DNA of 64,000 nt from Lama glama (taxonomy: Eukaryota): the NCBI GenBank assembly GCA_028534125.1, contig CM052816.1, forward strand, positions 14,882,001 to 14,946,000, read 5' to 3'. How positions within the stretch are numbered: the stretch's first letter is position 1; each line of letters begins with the position of its first letter. Position numbers and translations under genes: made by a program. Positions 15,680-58,793 of this stretch are shown piece after piece. Below the pieces are notes generated by a model that was not told the origin of the DNA, did not search any database, and saw only the letters and a program-made list of their open reading frames with translations.

Positions 15680-16012
15680 CTGCACTGTCCAATACAGTAA
15701 CCACCAGCCAGCCACACATGGCCACTGAGAACGTGAAATGTTAGTCCAAAATGAAATGTGCTTTCAGTGTAAAATACACACCAGAATTTGAAGATTTAGT
15801 ACAAAATCAGAATGTAAAACATACCATTAATAATTTCTACATTGATTCTATGTTGAAATATTTTTGATAATTAGGCTAAATAAAATGCTACCGAAATTAA
15901 TTTCATGTGTTTCCTTTTGCCATTTTAATGCAGCTACTAGATAATTTAATACTAAATAATTTAATAATGTGGCTTTCATCTATGGGTCATATTATATTTC
16001 TGTTGAACAGAG
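15680..16012. mobile_element. MER33-like hAT DNA transposon
   Basis: gcactgtccaatacagtaaccac...cacatggcc...tatatttctgttgaacag. Confidence 0.65.
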
Positions 16013-18099
16013 CTACTCAAGACTACCTGGTTTTCAAAAACATTTTCTTATTGTTTAAACCAGTGTAAATCAGGTTGGTCTTTTTTCTATAGAAAGCATC
16101 GCACTTAATGCAAGAGACTGCAACATTTTGGCTAACCTGCTTTTCACTGTTTATATACTACTAGAGCAATATATAAGGGTATTTGCTATTTCCTCACTCC
16201 TATAATATAATTTTCTATCTCCAAGATATAAGCAAGGCTTCTCCCATAACCCACAATTTTTTAACACCCACAGTATAAGGAACTTGAAAGTTTATTAAAG
16301 GGAATTTTCAATCATATAGCATTAGCTTGATAGTGCTACTCCTTTATCATAGGTAGGAAGCCTTCTGAGCCTTGTTACTACACTGGAGAATTTACTGCTA
16401 CCCCCAAATCTTTGGTTCACTAGTATCACAGATATTCCATGGGACAATCACAAGAGTATAATTCTTTCATCAACTCAGAGTGTTTCTATATGTCAAATGG
16501 ATTTGATAAACATAAACACACACACACACACACACAACTGGATATATCAACAGACATTAAGGTAATGGTGACCTGGCAGAGCTCTTAGCTTTAGGATCAA
16601 TGTAATTACCCTGCAAAAAAATAACCTTCAGAAAACGTGTCAAACTCAAAAGGAGAAAATATGTTTCAGGATTGAAGGAGGTAGATACTTCAGGGGAAAC
16701 TTCAGTTGATCCTTTTAATTATTCCTGACAATCTTCTACTTAAAGGTTTACTAACTAAAATACATCATAATTTTGGCAAATCAGAATTGCATAGAATTTA
16801 TCTCAGGTTATTTTCTGTGACAAAGATATTTGAACATCATAAAACTCATAGGCAATTAAAATGCAAAGCAATATATGGATAACCTTCTTGTATAAGCTTG
16901 GCCTCAAATTTTATAATCACAAAAACGGATTATGCAGAGACTAGCATGTTAAACTCATATCTATGAAATGCGTAAAATCTGGTACAATGAAGGGATAAGT
17001 ACAGGGGGAAAATTTCATCTTCAAAAAGAGGAAAGAGAGAATCCTGGAAATACATCAGCTAACATTCTTCAACACATTACAGAACAAAGAACTAAAGTAC
17101 AATTATGTGGAAGAGCTTAATTTTTCCTCAGACTTAACATTAAAAAAAATCAGACTGGTGCCAAGCCATTTAAATCCCCCTCATCATACATAGTCTCACA
17201 GTCTACTAAAAGCAAAGGCAACACATTCACACACACACTTTTTGCAAACTTCTCCCCTCATGATAATTGGCACTGTCCCTGACTGGAGAGGAAATGTATA
17301 TAAAGTTGCTGTATCTCATTTTAATGTGACTTGGAATATATTTTCTCTCACAAATTATTAAAGAATTTGGGCTATATTTATATTTTTTTCTGGATGGATC
17401 AATTCTTTCATTCAATTAGCAACTATTTTTTTATCTCCCATGTTTTGATACTAGGCACCAGGACCAGATGAACAAAATATTACATTCCTGATTATCATGG
17501 AGCTTCCAACCTAGGGCACGGGAGACAAGTACATAAAGAAATAGTTAATTTTGTAGATGTTAATCACATTTTTAGTGAGTTCTCTTAAACTTAGATGCAG
17601 ATGTTAATATTTTAGAGGACAGAAATTAAATTTCAAATGACCTTGATGCTCTACCAAACTGATCCTATTAAAAAATAAATGGAAATGAATAGGAAGAAGT
17701 GGAAACTGTTACATAGTTAGGTTAAAATGCTATAAATACATGTTGATGAATACCTGACCACCCATACAAGAGGCAAGCAGAAAATAGTTCTCAAAACAGT
17801 AGAGGTGGAATTTTTAAAATTCCAAACTAATTTAAAAATTACTGGCAAATGACTGACAGGGAGTAATATTTGAATTATATTCTAATCAGACCATTTGTCT
17901 TTCAGATAACTGTCCTAAACGAACATGGGCCTCCAGAAGAACACTTACTTCTCTGTTACCATTTACATCTACGTCGAATACTTTAAAAAGAGGAATCATC
18001 CTTGTTCCTTCTGAGGGCCTTCAAAACAGAAACAGACCCCGAGTCATAGGCCTCCTACGGACATTTCCATAACCAACACACACAGACTTAGAACTACAT

Positions 18100-18803
18100 A
18101 GTGGACAGCAAGTCCTCACTCCACTGATTTGGGTGTTTTAAAATCCACAGCATGGTTAGTTATAAATTCTTAGTTCGGCTCCAAATTGGATACAGCCTGG
18201 GGAGCATCCAGATGTCTCCAGAAAAAGGACGCTTTCCTCACGGACTCCCTATCTCTGGCAATCACCCGGAAGCCAAGGAGCTATCCGGCTTCATGGCGAT
18301 CCGGTAAAAGTTCTGGCTTAGCGGGGGCGGGCCGGAGAATCTACGTCTTTCTTGGTATTGTTTTCTCTAAATATTTCCAAACCAACGTTCTTCACGAGAG
18401 TATCATCTTCATCGCGTATAGCCAACTTCTCGCGAGACAAGTCACGCCGGATAGCGTATTTGTGCGTTGCGCCTGCGCGCGCCGGGGCAGTGAGCACTTC
18501 CGCCCGAGTTGTGCTGTCACTCATAGCCGCCTCCGGTTGCGTAGCGTTTTATTCTCCGCTGGGTCTGCAGCTCTGGACGGAGGTCTGCTGAGCTGCCGAG
18601 CTGCGCAGCTGAGGAGCTGCAGAATCTGGCTCTCGAAGCTGCGGATATCAGCGAGATTTCGTGTTGCCTGTCCTGAGCTGTTTCACTACTAATTAGTAGC
18701 GGATCGCTCCTGATTGCCGCGAGCCGGAAAGAACAAAGGAATCAAGAAGGAGACGCTCGGCCACGGGCCGCCTTGCTCCGGAGTGGCTTCTGCTCGCTCC
18801 TGT
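18100..18803 (-). pseudogene. Highly decayed gamma-B-like protocadherin exon 5' end underlying the TAF7 promoter
   Basis: Minus strand gives, with frameshifts, (ACA)GGAGCGAGC..., GPWPSVSFLIPLFFPARG, ATCCGCTAC (IRY), NLAD, EL..AE, IRDEDD..LEI.E, LSQN, DRE in Pcdh order; CSE 203 bp upstream. Confidence 0.55.
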
Positions 18804-19030
18804 CCGGAGAAACTGGATTTATAATCGTCACTGGATTGTAAGTACCCGAGGCGAAGAGAGCTCACTACGCCCCGCTTTTTGAATATCTTTGTTCCGGGAG
18901 AGTTGTGGATTGGGAGTGTCTGCTGGGCTTTAGCTTTGTGTGCCGAAAATCATTCCGTAGCAGCCGCCATTTGCTTTCCTGCTAGCTAGCTCTCTGCGTT
19001 GTCCTGCAGCGGCATCTAGAGGTTGGAACT
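18200..19030 (+). promoter_or_regulatory. TAF7 CpG-island promoter and non-coding first exon
   Basis: High CpG density; GC box 18323-18332, TCTCGCGAGA palindrome 18428-18437, NRF1-like TGCGCCTGCGC 18468-18478, ETS CACTTCCG 18495-18502, YY1-like GCCGCCATTTG 18963-18973. Confidence 0.8.
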
Positions 19031-19222
19031 TGGCATTGCAGCTAAGATTTAAATGGACTTAATTGAGTAAGGCAACGTGTCAGTAACGACTGGTATTCAG
19101 CCACAGCATACTTAGAAAGACTTGGGGCTTAATTTAAAATAGACGCTTAGCTGCTGTTGTACTTAGAACTGTTTGTAATTAAAATTCCAATTCATAGCGA
19201 ACTGGTCTTTCTGTTGAAATAG
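18838..19222 (+). other. Putative 5'UTR intron of TAF7
   Basis: Donor GTAAGT at 18838; acceptor ctttctgttgaaatAG at 19222 (alternative ttttAG at 19236). Confidence 0.55.
19006..19024 (-). promoter_or_regulatory. Pcdh-type CSE/CTCF element inside the TAF7 5' region
   Basis: GCAGCGGCATCTAGAGGTT, same orientation and pattern as the other CSEs; TTGCA module at 19036-19040. Confidence 0.75.
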
Positions 19223-19280
19223 GTGGAACTTTTTAGTGCAACAAGTGGTTACTAGAGAAGTGAGTCACCAAGAAATAAAG

Positions 19281-20330
19281 ATGAGTAAGAGCAAAGATGA
19301 TGCTCCTCATGAACTGGAGAGCCAATTTATCTTACGCCTTCCTCCAGAGTATGCCTCTACTGTGAGGCGAGCAGTACAGTCTGGCCATGTCAACCTGAAG
19401 GACAGACTGACAATTGAATTACACCCTGATGGGCGTCATGGAATCGTCAGAGTGGACCGGGTCCCACTGGCCTCAAAACTGGTGGATCTGCCGTGTGTTA
19501 TGGAAAGTTTGAAAACCATTGATAAGAAAACCTTTTACAAGACAGCTGATATCTGTCAGATGCTTGTCTCTACAGTTGATGGTGATCTCTATCCTCCTGT
19601 GGAGGAACCAGTTGCTACTGCTGATCCCAAAGCAAGCAAGAAAAAGGATAAGGACAAAGAGAAAAAATTTGTATGGAACCATGGAATTACTCTGCCTCTA
19701 AAAAATGTCCGAAAGAGAAGGTTCCGGAAGACAGCAAAGAAGAAGTATATTGAATCTCCAGATGTGGAAAAAGAAGTGAAGCGGTTGCTGAGCACAGATG
19801 CTGAAGCTGTCAGTACTCGTTGGGAAATAATTGCTGAAGATGAAACAAAAGAAACAGAAAATCAGGGCCTTGATATCGCTTCTCCAGGAATGTCTGGCCA
19901 CAGGCAGGGCCATGACTCATTAGAACATGATGAGCTTCGGGAGATATTCAATGACCTCAGCAGCAGCAGCGAAGATGAAGATGAGACACAGCATCAAGAT
20001 GAAGAAGATATAAACATCATCGACACTGAGGAAGATCTGGAAAGACAGCTACAGGACAAGCTAAATGAATCAGATGAACAGCACCAAGAAAACGAGGGAA
20101 CCAATCAGCTGGTTATGGGAATCCAGAAACAGATTGATAACATGAAAGGCAAGCTCCAGGAGACCCAGGACAGGGCAAAGCGACAGGAGGATCTCATCAT
20201 GAAAGTGGAAAACCTGGCTCTCAAGAACAGATTTCAGGCTGTGCTAGATGAACTGAAACAAAAGGAAGACCGAGAAAAGGAGCAGCTCAGCTCTCTGCAA
20301 GAAGAGCTAGAATCACTCCTAGAGAAGTGA
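19281..20330 (+). CDS. TAF7: TFIID subunit 7, uninterrupted CDS (349 aa), retrogene of TAF7L
   Basis: MSKSKDDAPHELESQFILRLP...LESLLEK; TAFII55 N-terminal domain, acidic region and C-terminal coiled coil; expected synteny. Confidence 0.97.
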   Translation: MSKSKDDAPHELESQFILRLPPEYASTVRRAVQSGHVNLKDRLTIELHPDGRHGIVRVDRVPLASKLVDLPCVMESLKTIDKKTFYKTADICQMLVSTVDGDLYPPVEEPVATADPKASKKKDKDKEKKFVWNHGITLPLKNVRKRRFRKTAKKKYIESPDVEKEVKRLLSTDAEAVSTRWEIIAEDETKETENQGLDIASPGMSGHRQGHDSLEHDELREIFNDLSSSSEDEDETQHQDEEDINIIDTEEDLERQLQDKLNESDEQHQENEGTNQLVMGIQKQIDNMKGKLQETQDRAKRQEDLIMKVENLALKNRFQAVLDELKQKEDREKEQLSSLQEELESLLEK

Positions 20331-20820
20331 GGAGAGCTTTGATACTTAATTTCATTCCTGAGAGTGGTCAGCCTTGAAAGAAAAATTTTTGTTTCATTGC
20401 CTGGACTAGATAGTATATCTCTGCAGTAGTTCGCATTTCCTTCATTGCATTCTGTTTGATTTGTCTAGTAGACAAATGTGAATTTCTAAATCATTTGTCT
20501 TTCAGAACCACTTTGCTAGGTGTTTGCCCTGTAGAAAGTAGGAATGTATAGACAAATGTAGGAAAGTTGTAGAATTAGCGGAGTGAACAGTTCAACTTAG
20601 TAATTAATCGCAGCTTCACTAGAGGACTTTGTTGCTGTTTGTCCATTTACCAGAAGCTGCTGTTGTTCTTGTGTGATGCCATTTGAGATGAGTAAGAGCC
20701 TAGTCTGGGGGCGGGGGAGCTTGTTTGCATATGCTTTCCCATGCTGTAGCTATTTTCCCAGCTATTCAAAGCAATTTTCTACATTTAGCATTGCAAATCA
20801 TTTATAAGGTTGTTTAACAC

Positions 20821-21620: not shown

Positions 21621-24319
21621 TAAATAATTATTTGAATTAAAGAGTGATCAAAGTGGTAGGAAAGTGTATAAAGAACTGTGTTTTACATATGGTTGATTTC
21701 AGATTAATCATTCTAAATCAGTTTATAAATGACAGAAGCAGAGTTTGCTTCAAATTCATCTGCAGCATAAGTAAATTGAGTTGGTTTACTACTGTAGCTT
21801 TATTTTTGATTTATTTATGGCTTGGCTTTGCACTAATATTAAAACCTCCATAATGAAGAGTAAATATCTGTTACAATAAACTTCAAAAGAGAAAAGGTTA
21901 ACTGAAGAAGATTGGGATTCATTTCTCTTTAGGTAAATCTAGAGTTAGCAAAAAAGACTTTTTTCCCAGCTCCCTTGCCTGATGAGTATGATGTTCAGTT
22001 GGGCTGCAGTTTTCAGTATTTTTGAGTTGATGAACAGTTGAATTTTCTTTAATTAGTGTTTTAACATACAGGAATAAGAAGAGTAACTGAAAAATTTTAA
22101 GTAATGCAAAAATTTTGCAAAAAATACAAAGTAAAGTTGTCCCTTTCACACCAACTTTCCAGGGTAACTTTTTGAGATGTATTGGTCCAGGCCTTTACTT
22201 GGTGTACAATTAATTGTATACATATATATATAATTTTGTAAAGCAAAAAATATATATTGTTATAGATACTATTCTAAAACTTTTATCACTCAAAAATTTA
22301 TTACGAGTATCCTTCCATATTAGCACATAGATACTTCCTGCTATTTTTCATGATACAGATTTTTTTTTTCCCTTGATTTTATCCACTCCCCTATTGCTGG
22401 TCACTTACATTGTTCCATTTTAAATTTGCTATTACACAGAATGCTGCAATAAGCACATCAGTCTGGCTTCCATTTTGCATTATATCTATAGATTAGGTAA
22501 GTGGGATCTTTGTGTTCAGTTCAAAATGTCATAAAGCCTGACATTTTGAATTTGGAGAGCAAATGTTTATTTGAGATGAGGAATTTGGACAAATAGTGAC
22601 AATTCATGTCTTTGAAGGACTGTGTCTTGACCTCTTGCTTATCTTATTATCCAGTAAGAATTCTGTGTGAAAACAGACTAGGAAGACTGCCCACCAAACA
22701 TCAGCTATACTGGCCTTTCTGTACTTCAAATACCCAGGTCTTTCTCACTACAGAGCTTTATTTAGCATTTACAGTTCCCTTTTCCTGGAACAGTCTCCAT
22801 ATCCTCTCATGGCTAGCTTTTTGTTACTCAGGCCTCAGCTCAAACCTCACTTTCTCTGGTAATCCTACCTGGCCACTCAATCTAATTGCTAGGGAACATG
22901 TGATGTGGGTGTTCACATCTAGTCAAGGGTGGTGGTCTTCACTGAAAAGTTGGAAGTTCCTTTGCCATTATTTTCCATGTATGCTTGGGAGGACATGTGC
23001 TTAAATTCAAAACAGAAGCATAATTCTGGTTAGTTAGAATCGGGGAAAAAATGGTTTCAGATGTTTATGACTGCCCAGTGTCTTGGGCAGTGTTACAGTA
23101 TTTGCTGAAGTGTGTTCTCTCCAAGTCCAGCTGTTTAAATACACTTTATGGAACTCAATCTCTTTCTGTCACTATTTGTGCAACTATGTCCGACAATTCA
23201 ATGAAGGTAAAGACCATTTCCCTATTAATGCCCTACCTGGCCTTCATTATTAGTTTGGTTTCTCCAAAACATACATATATGAACTTAATGCAAAAGCATC
23301 TCTTGTGTGTGTTTTTAAAAAATTAACAATGAACCATATGTAATTAATTGACAGTAGTTAAAACTGAATGCTCCTCTAGAAAACTTGATAGGACCTCCAT
23401 AAGTATTAAAATATGATTTTCCCCCATTGACTTTCCTGAGGGTGATACCAAAACATTTTTAAAAATCCCTCAAATATGATACGAAGAATTTAACATTTTT
23501 TTTCTAGTTTAAAATGGTGCGTTGTTCTCACATATCTTTTCTCTATCAAAAAGCCTGCCAATATAACATAGTAAGCCCCAAAGACAAAGAATAGGAAATG
23601 AGACAACAGTGAATGAGAAATGTCAACCTGTTTTCAGAAGGGCAAAGCAGATGAAGAAATGATAATTGAGAAATCACAGAAAGTTACATGCTAAATGTCT
23701 GCAAGGGGGTATATGAAAGAGAGAGAGAGACACACCCACTTGATAAAGAAACTGTGAGACAATTTTTGCAGGCAAAGTTTCCAAGGAAGACGGAAGTGGG
23801 GCTGGAAACAGAATTCATTAAAGTGTGTTCACAGCTGGATGTGCAGGATCCCTATGTCACTCGAGGAAGCCAGGTAACTCTTACTTACCCATCCCACAGA
23901 TGGAAAGTTTATTTTCTGGATAAATTGAACCAAAGGCTCAAACTCAGAGAAGGCAGGTCCAGATGAAGGCTGGGATGTATAACATTAAACAAGGGGGTTA
24001 TGTGAAAATATGTTTTCTTTACTGCAGGATGTCACCCCTCTTACCCTATTTTGGTCTCATTAAATCAGTATCCAAAGCATACATCACCCCCAAACACACA
24101 CAAACAGAGTCAAGACTGTAAGATTATTCTCTGAAGAAACCATGTGAGCCCAGAGAAAAGAAATCCAAATACTGACATTTGGGTATTATCTACACAAAAG
24201 GCCTGGTCACTGTCTACCACTACACTAAAGTCTACCTATTGACAAACTACCCATGCACAATCTGCTTTTGGGTGCCACACTTTAAAATGTTAACTGGGAG
24301 CCAAAGAATCAGACAAGGA

Positions 24320-24910
24320 AAGCTTCCTGAATGGAAGAATCATTTCAGCACACCTGACCCCTTCCCCATTTTGTTTTTACCCCCAAGGTAAAATACCGCC
24401 TAGAGCTTAGAATGTAAACCTTAAGAAAATTCGTTCCAAAGCTGGAATTATAAGGATCTGGGAGAAAAAGGTGGAGGTAGGCTACAGCGGTACCCACAAT
24501 GATGCCCAAAACCACATCTTGCCTACTAGGCCTATAGTCATTGCTTCCCAGAATTGCTGCTGCATAAAGCTGTATGGCTCCTCAACAAGAACCATGAAGC
24601 GGCGCGAACAGAGCTCTGGAGCCACACAGCTCTCTTCTATCAAGTTTCTTAGCTCTATATAGATACGTTTCCCAACCCGATGGTACAAGGCCTTGTCCTA
24701 CCTCTGGAAATGATGGGGACTCTGCGTCCCACCAGCTCACAGGGATCTAGGCTCAGATCCTAGGCGCGTTGCCACGAAACAGCCTTTCTCTAGCTCCGTA
24801 GGCACCGAGTAGCGGATCTGCCGGCCTCGGGCCTCCTCCAGTGTCGCTAGGCGAGCAAAGGGCGAGACCCAGAGGGGCGCGGCGGGCCGGCACCTTTGCT
24901 GAGCCGCCAT
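24320..24910 (-). pseudogene. Truncated gamma-A-like protocadherin relic (signal peptide, EC1, part of EC2)
   Basis: MAAQQRCR...QIRYSVPTELEKGCFVA, then after frameshifts DLSLDPCELVGRRVPIISRGRT, KLDRRELCG, FMVLVEEP, GTNFLKVYILSSRRYFTL. Confidence 0.85.
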
Positions 24911-25154
24911 TCCTCTCGGGAAAGGATTAAGGGTTTTCTGATTCAAAGGAGCCACGTATTCTCATGTAAACCGCTCCCCTCTCCCCCCAGTAGTTTGTTT
25001 GTTTTCCCTATTTAAAACCTGTTTCTGAGGTTGACCCTTTGACCCCAGTCACGGTCAAACGGGAGCACCCCTCCCCCCCAGCCCCCGCCCAGTTTGATTT
25101 ACCGAGTAGGAAATGCGGGCGGTGGAGGGGCAGGCAGAATAGGAAAGCCGGTGA

Positions 25155-25173
25155 GTAGCGGCGCCTAGCGGTT
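25155..25173 (-). promoter_or_regulatory. CSE/CTCF element of the relic, head-to-head with SLC25A2
   Basis: GTAGCGGCGCCTAGCGGTT, 245 bp upstream of relic ATG 24910; TCGCA module at 25184-25188. Confidence 0.8.
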
Positions 25174-25300
25174 CCCGCCGAAGTCGCAAGAATTTATCGA
25201 ACAGCTTTCAACCGCTGGATTGTAGTCCATTAAAAATGTTTACCTAGTACGCGTCCCGGTCGGGGGCGCGGGGATGGCGGGCGGTGCCCGGCAGGCGGCG

Positions 25301-25530: not shown

Positions 25531-26436
25531 ATGGAGTCCAATCCTGCCATCCAAGCCGCCATCGACCTCACCGCGGGGGCCCTCGGGGGCACAGCATGCG
25601 TCCTGACCGGGCAGCCCTTCGACACCATGAAAGTGAAGATGCAGACGTTCCCTGGCTTGTACAAGGGCCTCATCGACTGCTGCTTGAAGACGTACTCCCA
25701 AGTGGGCTTGCGGGGCTTCTACAAGGGGACGGGCCCAGCGCTGATGGCCTATGTCGCAGAGAACTCCGTCCTCTTTATGTGCTACGGCTTCTGCCAGCAG
25801 TTTGTGAGGAAAGTGGTTGGATTGGACAAGCAGGCAAAGTTGAGTGATCTGCAGACTGCGGCCGCGGGTTCCTTCGCCTCTGCGTTTGCCGCGCTGGCCC
25901 TGTGCCCCACTGAGCTTGTGAAGTGCCGGCTGCAGACCATGCACGAGATGGAGATGTCAGGGAGGATAGCAAAAAGCCATAATACAGTCTGGTCCGTCGT
26001 GAAGAGTATCCTTAGAAAGGATGGACCCTTGGGCTTCTACCGTGGACTTTCGAGCACTCTACTTCAAGAAGTACCGGGCTACTTCTTCTTCTTCGGTGGG
26101 TATGAACTGAGCCGATCATTTTTTGCTTCAGGAGGATCCAAAGATGAACTTGGCCCTGTTCCCTTGATGTTAAGTGGTGGTATTGCTGGAATTTGTCTTT
26201 GGCTTGTCATATACCCCGTGGATTGTATCAAATCCAGAATTCAGGTTCTTTCCATGTTTGGAAAACAGGCAGGATTTATCAGAACTCTTGTAAGTGTTGT
26301 GAAAAATGAAGGAGTAGCAACCTTATATTCTGGATTGAAAGCTACTTTGGTTCGAGCGTTCCCTGCCAATGGGTCACTGTTTTTGGCTTATGAATACAGC
26401 AGGAAGATGATGATGAGCCACTTTGAAGCATACTGA
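25531..26436 (+). CDS. SLC25A2: Mitochondrial ornithine carrier 2 (ORNT2/ORC2), intronless retrogene of SLC25A15, 301 aa
   Basis: Three carrier signatures ([24 protein letters not shown]); Q179 characteristic of ORC2; synteny next to TAF7. Confidence 0.96.

Positions 26437-56484: not shown

Positions 56485-58793
<2,309 letters not shown>

Follow-up and report, generated by a model that had tools for sequence, protein, structure and literature searches.

Introduction

Retrocopies can be expressed from the promoter of a head-to-head neighbor or from CpG islands unattached to other genes, as described by Carelli et al. 2016 (PMC4772013), the main text of which contains no occurrence of TAF7 or SLC25A2. 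The promoters of protocadherin (Pcdh) variable exons carry a CSE, or CGCT box, that is a CTCF site, and the alternate exons of Pcdh-alpha have antisense lncRNA promoters at a CTCF site within the exon, some 700 bp away from the CSE (Canzio et al. 2019, as summarized in PMC7811963). According to PMC2764143, the anole and non-tetrapod clusters lack Taf7 and Slc25a2, which arrived in the mammalian lineage.

We analyzed a stretch of 64,000 nucleotides of Lama glama DNA (the window, contig CM052816.1) in which TAF7 and SLC25A2 lie among Pcdh genes. TAF7 is an essential subunit of the general transcription factor TFIID, and the middle of a protocadherin cluster is an odd place for it. An earlier note on this DNA had proposed that the TAF7 promoter is built on the antisense strand of a dead gamma-B Pcdh exon. 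No printed description of a link between such a relic and the TAF7 promoter was found in the literature covered, a scope that lay outside Wu et al. 2001 and Wu 2005.

Results

The features of the TAF7 region are as follows.

19281..20330, plus strand: TAF7 coding sequence, a single uninterrupted open reading frame of 349 aa (ORF listing)
19269..19345, plus strand: first DNA homology between TAF7 and TAF7L, in the TAF7L exon with the same start codon (blastn, 76.6% over 77 nt, E 1.9e-11)
18695..19054, minus strand: gamma-B-type Pcdh relic with upstream module, CSE, 5'UTR, signal peptide and IRY codons (nhmmer, gamma-B profile)
18997..19026, minus strand: CSE-like element (CGCT box, CTCF-type) of the dead Pcdh promoter (CSE matrix, blastn, nhmmer posterior)
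18695..18752, minus strand: signal-peptide end and IRY block, the best-preserved part of the relic (blastn, block profile, tblastn)
17922..18330, minus strand: what may be faint remains of the dead exon's cadherin-repeat body (colinear tblastn pieces)
18200..19000, no strand: TAF7 CpG island (CpG observed/expected 0.86-1.48)
18420..18560, plus strand: predicted TAF7 core promoter and start zone (housekeeping-type motifs read from the sequence)
18838..19222, plus strand: candidate leader intron, GTAAGT ... AG (inferred from splice-like signals)

TAF7 is a processed, intronless copy of a multi-exon gene of the TAF7L type, as the earlier note had held, because its coding sequence is one open reading frame, whereas TAF7L in the same genome (contig C37) is multi-exon, with at least six separate matching pieces spanning about 8.3 kb. 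The detectable 5' edge of the retrocopy is at 19269. Upstream of it, in 17800-19268, we found no significant similarity to the 30 kb TAF7L locus, CpG island included. The possibility that the CpG island of TAF7 derives from the TAF7L promoter or 5'UTR was rejected, as homology to TAF7L begins only at 19269. The retrocopy runs antisense to the relic, and its head-to-head neighbor, within 2 kb, is a dead gene. When metagenomes were scanned for orthologues of the TAF7 leader, the only matches were distant TAF7 homologues, with 44-58% identity.

On its minus strand, the TAF7 5' region is a decayed gamma-B Pcdh promoter with the first codons of its exon. Positions 19054-18695 formed a single colinear nhmmer alignment (E 1.1e-5, 17.1 bits, model positions 13-384) with a gamma-B 5' profile, the source of which was five gamma-B 5' regions located elsewhere in the same genome. 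Dinucleotide shuffles (2000, maximum 4.8) never reached this score, nor did 2000 shuffles of 40-nt blocks, which keep local composition (maximum 3.9), so that the comparison with shuffled controls called for by the earlier note came out at 0 of 4000. The relic was retained in 5/5 jackknifes of the profile. As real-sequence controls, the top plus-strand score of the gamma-B profile within the window was -2.8, and its top score over 30 kb around TAF7L, including the CpG island there, was -7.8.

Since the gamma-B profile alone matched the relic at E<0.05, with none of the gamma-A, beta, alpha-like and C-type profiles doing so, the relic is of gamma-B type, in line with the resemblance noted earlier, although this subfamily call depends on a profile of five genes only. 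The three top blastn matches of its signal peptide were gamma-B genes, and the block profile gave it a better rank than the window's live gamma-A and beta genes. It lies on the array strand and shares the orientation of all Pcdh units of the window, as had been remarked for the Pcdh CSEs. Within 18100-19281, the span given in the earlier note, Pcdh derivation is demonstrable for 18695-19054 only.

The CSE-like element was detected with a 30-nt CSE matrix, iterated from 23 promoter instances that all lie outside the window; an earlier matrix from a MAFFT block, which covered just 4/30 promoters, had been dropped. The site at 19026-18997 on the minus strand scored 21.2 bits and ranked sixth among 126,884 scored window positions, and it covers the Pcdh-type CSE placed by the earlier note at 19006-19024. 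Ranks 1 to 7 were all Pcdh promoters or relics on the minus strand, the next score being 14.8. The element lies 322 nt upstream of the IRY-type codon triplet (18704-18696), and in most live genes the matrix site lies 313-380 nt upstream of the IRY anchor. By blastn it was in register with the CSEs of loci L022 and L018, and the nhmmer posterior was high across the block. It is on the opposite strand to TAF7, 255 nt from the TAF7 ATG, and lies within the TAF7 5' leader, or in the leader's intron if the leader is spliced.

The state of this element raises the possibility that the CSE block was kept for CTCF binding in the TAF7 leader, where it could serve TAF7 as a regulatory element, or could separate or anchor the beta and gamma arrays as a boundary element in forward orientation. 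The block scored 21.2 against 21.5 for the own CSE of the last live beta gene by the same matrix, in a unit whose exon body has decayed past detection, and an unmethylated state is permissive for CTCF. PMC7811963 identifies CSEs as CTCF sites, and PMC2776977 reports the human TAF7 island to be constitutively unmethylated. Against this, one strongly conserved G of the CTCF core consensus appears to be replaced, and the profile of the promoter block alone was weak (E 0.27). We regard retention for CTCF as possible but doubtful; it is compatible with the capture of the Pcdh promoter by TAF7 (see Discussion) and does not exclude it.

In the best-preserved part of the relic, 18749-18696 was in register by blastn with the signal-peptide end and IRY codons of gamma-B genes. 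Locus L017 matched with 72.7% over 55 nt (E 0.034), and L025 and L019 matched at the same place, the pairwise E-values being 0.03-0.09. A profile of this block alone gave E 0.01 (11.1 bits), the second-ranked match in the window, and residues 14-28 of L025 gave E 0.11 by tblastn. Of the signal peptide running to IRY in the earlier reading, the end and the IRY codons were present. The alignment to the gamma-B profile contains no ATG, the start codon being lost; one frameshift is required, as FLIPLFFPA is read in another frame than the IRY codons; and a stop follows IRY. The PEE part of the IRY-S-I/V-P-EE start of EC1 was not recognizable in the relic.

The exon body could not be followed further. 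Beyond 18695, all-Pcdh and gamma-B exon DNA profiles gave no match in 16000-18720 and three-frame protein profiles gave at most 0.5 bits, so that the NLA, EL..AE and DRE segments, read as exon body in the earlier note, received no support from profiles. There is no open reading frame at the relic for an exon of about 2.4 kb with six cadherin repeats and a transmembrane segment, and we consider the feature to be a relic, not a gene. Pfam cadherin models matched 0/17 stop-free minus-strand candidate fragments in an insensitive test, which matched 1/39 fragments of known relics (Cadherin_2, E 0.14); because the other 38 were missed too, this null result was not counted against the relic. A weak tblastn chain at 17922..18330 comprised colinear pieces corresponding to residues 242-258, 265-312 and 367-392. 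Shuffles reached the chain in 7/400 cases without a spacing rule and in 0-1/400 with the rule, which was picked after the data had been seen. Other relics probably contaminate the real-sequence controls, which come from the same cluster; the best-scoring ones are minus-strand pieces, one of which overlaps the candidate chain. When the window's three Pcdh proteins were used as tblastn queries, the relic region gave only an off-register match (E 0.95), and other relics were exposed. Further decayed Pcdh units in the window are a pseudogene of gamma-B type (12639-10848), two relics of gamma-A type and one of a beta promoter.

The modest scores of the single blocks (E 0.27 for the promoter, 0.01 for the signal peptide), the T/C-rich composition of the signal-peptide block and its pairwise blastn E-values of only 0.03-0.09 would fit a leader, rich in CpG and pyrimidines, that mimics a CSE and signal-peptide coding sequence with no common descent. 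However, no shuffle of either kind reached the score of the whole, the two blocks are correct in order, strand and spacing, the match is specific to gamma-B, the real CpG-island control scored below zero, and the site lies inside the Pcdh cluster amid relics on the same strand. Chance resemblance is disfavored by these data, and we consider it very improbable.

We then considered the promoter of TAF7 itself. The CpG island spans -400 to +400 of the IRY anchor of the relic, which is the position of the CpG peak in 19 live Pcdh genes. The predicted core promoter contains a palindromic TCTCGCGAGA at 18428-18437, which we take to be a housekeeping-type motif, and ACTTCCG at 18496-18502, presumably an ETS-like motif. 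RNA-labelled runs contained 0.70-0.73 of the words from 18300-20400, a share that fits either initiation near 18540 with splicing or initiation near 18890 without it. The candidate intron, if used, would take the CSE out of the mRNA. A genome search with the core-promoter segment (18150-18700) returned the self match alone, so the segment is single-copy; that it is repetitive, or was copied from some other promoter, was therefore rejected. Homology ends at 18695, and the predicted core promoter sits in 365 nt without Pcdh similarity detectable by DNA exon or protein profiles, so it could be inserted or newly evolved sequence.

A comparable arrangement was found at SLC25A2.

25531..26436, plus strand: SLC25A2-like intronless open reading frame (ORF listing)
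24337..25175, minus strand: gamma-A-type Pcdh relic, head-to-head with SLC25A2 (CSE matrix, gamma-A profile, exon profile)

This relic consists of a CSE (25175-25146; matrix rank 7, score 20.8), a 5' region (24986-24695) and exon sequence (24817-24337), and was matched by the gamma-A profile at E 4.3e-38 and by the exon profile at E 1.7e-26. The SLC25A2 ATG is 356 nt from the CSE, which is on the opposite strand. SLC25A2 is a processed copy too, its parent-type paralogue on contig C13 matching in five pieces with 73-85% identity. This second case suggests that Pcdh promoters, when dead or dying, were twice used as landing pads.

The Pcdh fragment could be real and yet a bystander, with the TAF7 promoter having arisen independently, either de novo or from the non-Pcdh sequence at 18331-18695. 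The predicted core promoter has no Pcdh similarity, and relics are frequent in the window: with at least five relic 5' ends, we roughly estimate that one would lie near TAF7 by chance in about 1 in 10 cases, which is not negligible. In addition, most robustly expressed retrocopies gained new promoters or used proto-promoters, according to PMC4772013. On the other hand, the fossil is inside the TAF7 leader, beyond mere proximity, the CpG island falls on the peak of CpG seen in Pcdh genes, and the head-to-head layout recurs at SLC25A2, which would be unlikely to happen twice by chance. An independent origin of the promoter seems unlikely to us on this evidence.

Discussion

We prefer the hypothesis that TAF7 took over the CpG island of the dead gamma-B unit as its own promoter, which we consider probable, because the relic is solid, its CSE is spaced as in live genes and TAF7 has no TAF7L 5' sequence, and also because the CpG island falls where CpG is maximal in live genes and SLC25A2 repeats the layout. 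Under this hypothesis, a gamma-B-type variable-exon unit would formerly have stood here on the minus strand, in a gamma array extending upstream of today's first gene. The processed copy of a TAF7L-type mRNA would have inserted about 215-255 bp upstream of the CSE of this unit, in the opposite orientation. Transcripts initiated in the 5' CpG island of the Pcdh unit could then have crossed the CSE in the antisense direction and entered the retrocopy, which would thereby have been expressed without a promoter of its own. Selection may subsequently have made the island a constitutive, unmethylated housekeeping promoter, while the Pcdh exon decayed. The order of these events, the position of the transcription start inside the former Pcdh unit and the descent of the island from the Pcdh island are inferred.

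A broader and more tentative proposal, which we would not expect to hold in full, is that Pcdh variable-exon promoters are repeated landing pads for retrogenes, that the promoters of TAF7 and SLC25A2 both come from dead gamma-type units, and that the TAF7 leader carries a working, forward-oriented, CSE-derived CTCF site. If promoter capture is true, it would explain the survival of TAF7 and SLC25A2 at exactly these spots, and would provide a concrete case of an "orphan" CpG island that is the fossil promoter of an extinct gene. It would also predict a CSE-derived CTCF site at the beta/gamma boundary, which could affect loop extrusion and promoter choice. If the landing-pad and CTCF proposals hold, an essential TFIID gene may be wired into the beta/gamma enhancer-loop system, or may insulate it, and a neuronal promoter that is chosen stochastically and controlled by methylation would have become a constitutive housekeeping one. 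The gamma array would once have reached upstream of today's first gamma gene. Promoter capture would also matter for the design of cluster deletions, in which Taf7 must be spared or replaced.

In comparison with known systems, TAF7 is like the retrocopies of Carelli et al. 2016 in that it is intronless, lies head-to-head within a few hundred bases of the promoter and CpG island of another gene, and has no parental upstream sequence. It differs from them in that the donor is dead and nearly erased, leaving an island that looks orphan, and in that the predicted TAF7 start is inside the donor unit, so that the transcript would overlap the donor promoter rather than diverge from it.

As in the Pcdh-alpha antisense lncRNAs (PMC7811963), transcription would start inside a variable exon (a prediction in the case of TAF7) and run antisense through the CSE-bearing promoter. 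This link to exon-internal antisense promoters is an analogy only: they are described for alternate alpha exons, the relic is of gamma-B type, and the product here is the mRNA of a TFIID subunit. No second CSE-like site in 17900-18700 was among the 14 top matrix matches listed, with a matrix that models promoter CSEs, not exonic sites.

Like live Pcdh units (PMC7811963), the relic has a CSE at the usual distance and in the array orientation, followed by gamma-B-type signal-peptide and IRY codons. Unlike them, it has no ATG or open reading frame, carries a frameshift and a stop, has an exon body decayed past detection, and is embedded in the leader of a gene that is unrelated to it and encoded on the opposite strand. 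The maps of Wu et al. 2001 reportedly marked Pcdh pseudogenes and relics, and the relic in the TAF7 leader resembles such mammalian pseudogenes and relics in being a decayed variable exon on the array strand between live genes.

Organization of the window

The window (G000:C1:14882001-14946000) lies within a 2.35-Gb mammalian assembly and carries all of its protocadherin (Pcdh) units on the minus strand. The ORFs of TAF7 and an SLC25A2-like carrier are flanked by these units of the opposite strand.

Features of the window (CSE, Pcdh promoter element)
860-3, minus strand: gamma-A gene, cut by the left window edge
8337-5893, minus strand: gamma-A gene
12639-10848, minus strand: gamma-B-type pseudogene, nearly full-length, between TAF7 and the first gamma-A gene
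19281-20330, plus strand: TAF7, intronless ORF
25175-24337, minus strand: gamma-A relic with its own CSE (exon and 5' profiles, CSE matrix)
25531-26436, plus strand: SLC25A2-like carrier, intronless ORF
29714-28814, minus strand: second gamma-A-type relic (5' profile, E 2e-8; exon pieces, E 3.4e-5 and 0.0048)
58766-56607, minus strand: beta-type gene with a 500-N gap inside
61033-60701, minus strand: beta-type promoter relic with CSE (matrix score 22.7, rank 4)

The pseudogene at 12639-10848 matched the gamma-B exon profile (E 6.5e-94) and 5' profile (E 6.9e-33), lacked any ORF of at least 150 aa, and had a CSE with a matrix score of 35.6, as high as those of live genes; it looks like a dead exon behind an apparently intact promoter. 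The beta-type promoter relic lies some 2 kb further upstream than the promoter of the live beta gene, and no exon was detectable behind it. These further fossils on the array strand show that the gamma array formerly reached upstream of its present first gene. The assembly gap (56772-57271) breaks the beta-type variable exon. Short unplaced contigs hold a large number of the genome's Pcdh variable exons, so the cluster assembly is incomplete.

A gamma-B-type relic upstream of TAF7

The earlier note had read a Pcdh CSE and a gamma-B-like signal peptide on the minus strand of the TAF7 5' region. We compared the minus strand of 19100-18000 by blastn with 30 Pcdh 5' regions taken from other parts of this genome, anchored on the IRY-type motif (first EC1 codons). 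The best matches were in register with the Pcdh 5' regions: 18749-18696 matched the signal-peptide end and IRY codons of the gamma-B genes L017, L025 and L019 (72.7% over 55 nt, E 0.034, for L017), and 19024-18999 matched the CSE of the Pcdh loci L022 and L018. The CSE-to-IRY distance was 320 nt in the relic, as compared with 326-329 nt in the latter two.

A gamma-B 5' profile (five genes, -380 to +300, none taken from the window) gave a single colinear match at 19054-18695 on the minus strand (E 1.1e-5, 17.1 bits), with posteriors high at the CSE and the signal-peptide/IRY block and low in between. Dinucleotide shuffles (2000, maximum 4.8 bits) and shuffles of 40-nt blocks (2000, maximum 3.9) never attained this score; on real sequence, the best scores were -2.8 for the plus strand of the window and -7.8 for 30 kb round TAF7L, including its CpG island. 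The match was retained in all five jackknife profiles (E 4.8e-4 to 4.5e-3). Taken alone, the signal-peptide block gave E 0.01 and ranked second in the window, and the promoter block gave E 0.27 and ranked fifth, behind four true promoters. An all-Pcdh 5' profile matched the relic at E 0.0035; among the subfamily profiles, it was found by gamma-B alone, with no match at E<0.05 for the gamma-A, beta, alpha-like and C-type profiles. With a 30-nt CSE matrix derived from 23 promoters, none of them in the window, 19026-18997 ranked sixth of 126,884 window positions. The top seven were all on the minus strand and all in live Pcdh genes or relics, and the score fell from 20.8 at rank 7 to 14.8 at rank 8.

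Taken together, the blastn matches, the profile with its controls and the CSE matrix indicate that both elements of the earlier reading are real, but the signal peptide requires a frameshift, is followed by a stop after IRY and has no aligned ATG. We regard a Pcdh relic upstream of TAF7 as very probable.

The sequence beyond the IRY codons

The residues NLA, EL..AE and DRE, which had been proposed to continue the exon, found no support beyond 18695 in DNA or protein exon profiles. Even with the threshold at E 1000, the all-Pcdh exon DNA profile detected nothing in 17000-18720; its gamma-B counterpart had no match in the colinear part, the sole matches of this second profile (16446-16131, E 0.11 or worse) being out of order; and no three-frame protein profile exceeded 0.5 bits. 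Pfam matched none of 17 fragments and likewise missed 38 of 39 known-relic fragments. A tblastn search with gamma-B proteins gave weak colinear pieces, at most putative traces of the exon body (residues 242-258 at 18330-18277, 265-312 at 18268-18137 and 367-392 at 17999-17922). Of 400 shuffles, 7 reached the score of this chain when spacing was left free, and 0-1 did so under a spacing rule picked after the data were seen. Two minus-strand stretches of real sequence from this cluster, used as controls and themselves possibly relics, scored about equally.

The minus-strand control piece at 22602-23702 had a high chain-test score. It contains a weak Pcdh exon-profile match (23174-23234, minus strand; model positions 722-782, E 0.024), which may derive from a downstream portion of the gamma-A relic that has been displaced.

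TAF7 is a retrocopy of TAF7L

On contig C37 of the same genome, the matches of TAF7L to TAF7 are split into six or more separate pieces spread across about 8.3 kb, as compared with the one ORF of TAF7, which bears out the statement that TAF7 is a TAF7L retrocopy. The DNA homology starts at 19269, 12 nt before the TAF7 ATG. An origin of the island from the TAF7L promoter or 5'UTR was considered and rejected, since nothing reached significance when 17800-19268 was compared with 30 kb of the TAF7L locus, a stretch that takes in its CpG island; the best remaining match (E 0.054) was off register. The segment 18150-18700 is single-copy in the genome.

Within the TAF7L locus (L061-L063, G000:C37:63794001-63824000, with the gene on the minus strand), the start-codon exon aligns with the TAF7 start (MSKS...), and a CpG island is located about 2.2-3.7 kb upstream of this exon. 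In one TAF7L tblastn piece, a stop interrupts the aligned frame, which probably reflects an exon edge. In the available text of PMC2764143, Taf7 and Slc25a2 are missing from the anole and non-tetrapod clusters, with entry in the mammalian lineage.

Anatomy of the TAF7 promoter

The TAF7 CpG island spans about 18200-19000, with a peak at 18300-18600. It covers -400 to +400 relative to the relic's IRY anchor, matching the CpG peak of 19 live Pcdh genes, and the +200 to +399 bin contains 20 CpGs, as compared with a median of 6 in those genes. Motifs read at 18428-18437 and 18496-18502, putatively of housekeeping type, suggest a predicted TAF7 start near 18500-18560, and a candidate leader intron could extend from GTAAGT at 18838 to AG at 19222. 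In RNA-labelled runs, 0.70-0.73 of the sampled words of 18300-20400 were present; this share agrees with initiation near 18540 followed by removal of the intron and, equally well, with an unspliced start near 18890. With either start, the transcript would initiate within what was once the Pcdh unit and run antisense across that unit's CSE. On balance, and with distinctly less confidence than for the relic itself, we favor the hypothesis that the TAF7 promoter descended from the island of the dead unit, firing antisense through that unit.

SLC25A2 as a second case

SLC25A2, too, is a processed copy, since the matches to its paralogue on contig C13 fall into five pieces (73-85% identity). The gamma-A relic on the opposite strand has its CSE 356 nt away from the SLC25A2 ATG, a head-to-head arrangement like that at TAF7; thus, both non-Pcdh genes of the cluster (2/2) are placed head-to-head on dead Pcdh promoters. 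According to the available text of PMC2776977, the two islands differ in human tissues, that of TAF7 being constitutively unmethylated and that of SLC25A2 constitutively methylated. Should both be Pcdh-descended, they would have met differing fates.

Comparison with known systems

A full-text literature search, with the papers likeliest to list relics outside its reach, found no description of the TAF7 relic. As described in the available text of PMC7811963, CSEs are CTCF sites, and exon-internal antisense promoters belong to alternate alpha exons that have a CTCF site within the exon. The TAF7 relic is, in contrast, of gamma-B type, so the link to Pcdh-alpha antisense promoters drawn in the earlier note holds as an analogy but not as membership.

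Retrocopies in the available text of PMC4772013, the main text of which does not mention TAF7 or SLC25A2, use the promoter of a head-to-head neighbor or CpG islands untied to another gene. Compared with these, TAF7 appears to be a further case of a promoter taken from a neighbor, but one whose donor gene has died, so that an apparently orphan island would be a fossil promoter. The case bears on how an essential gene came by its promoter and gives clear predictions; it is well supported and, as far as searched, undescribed, yet lies inside a known principle.
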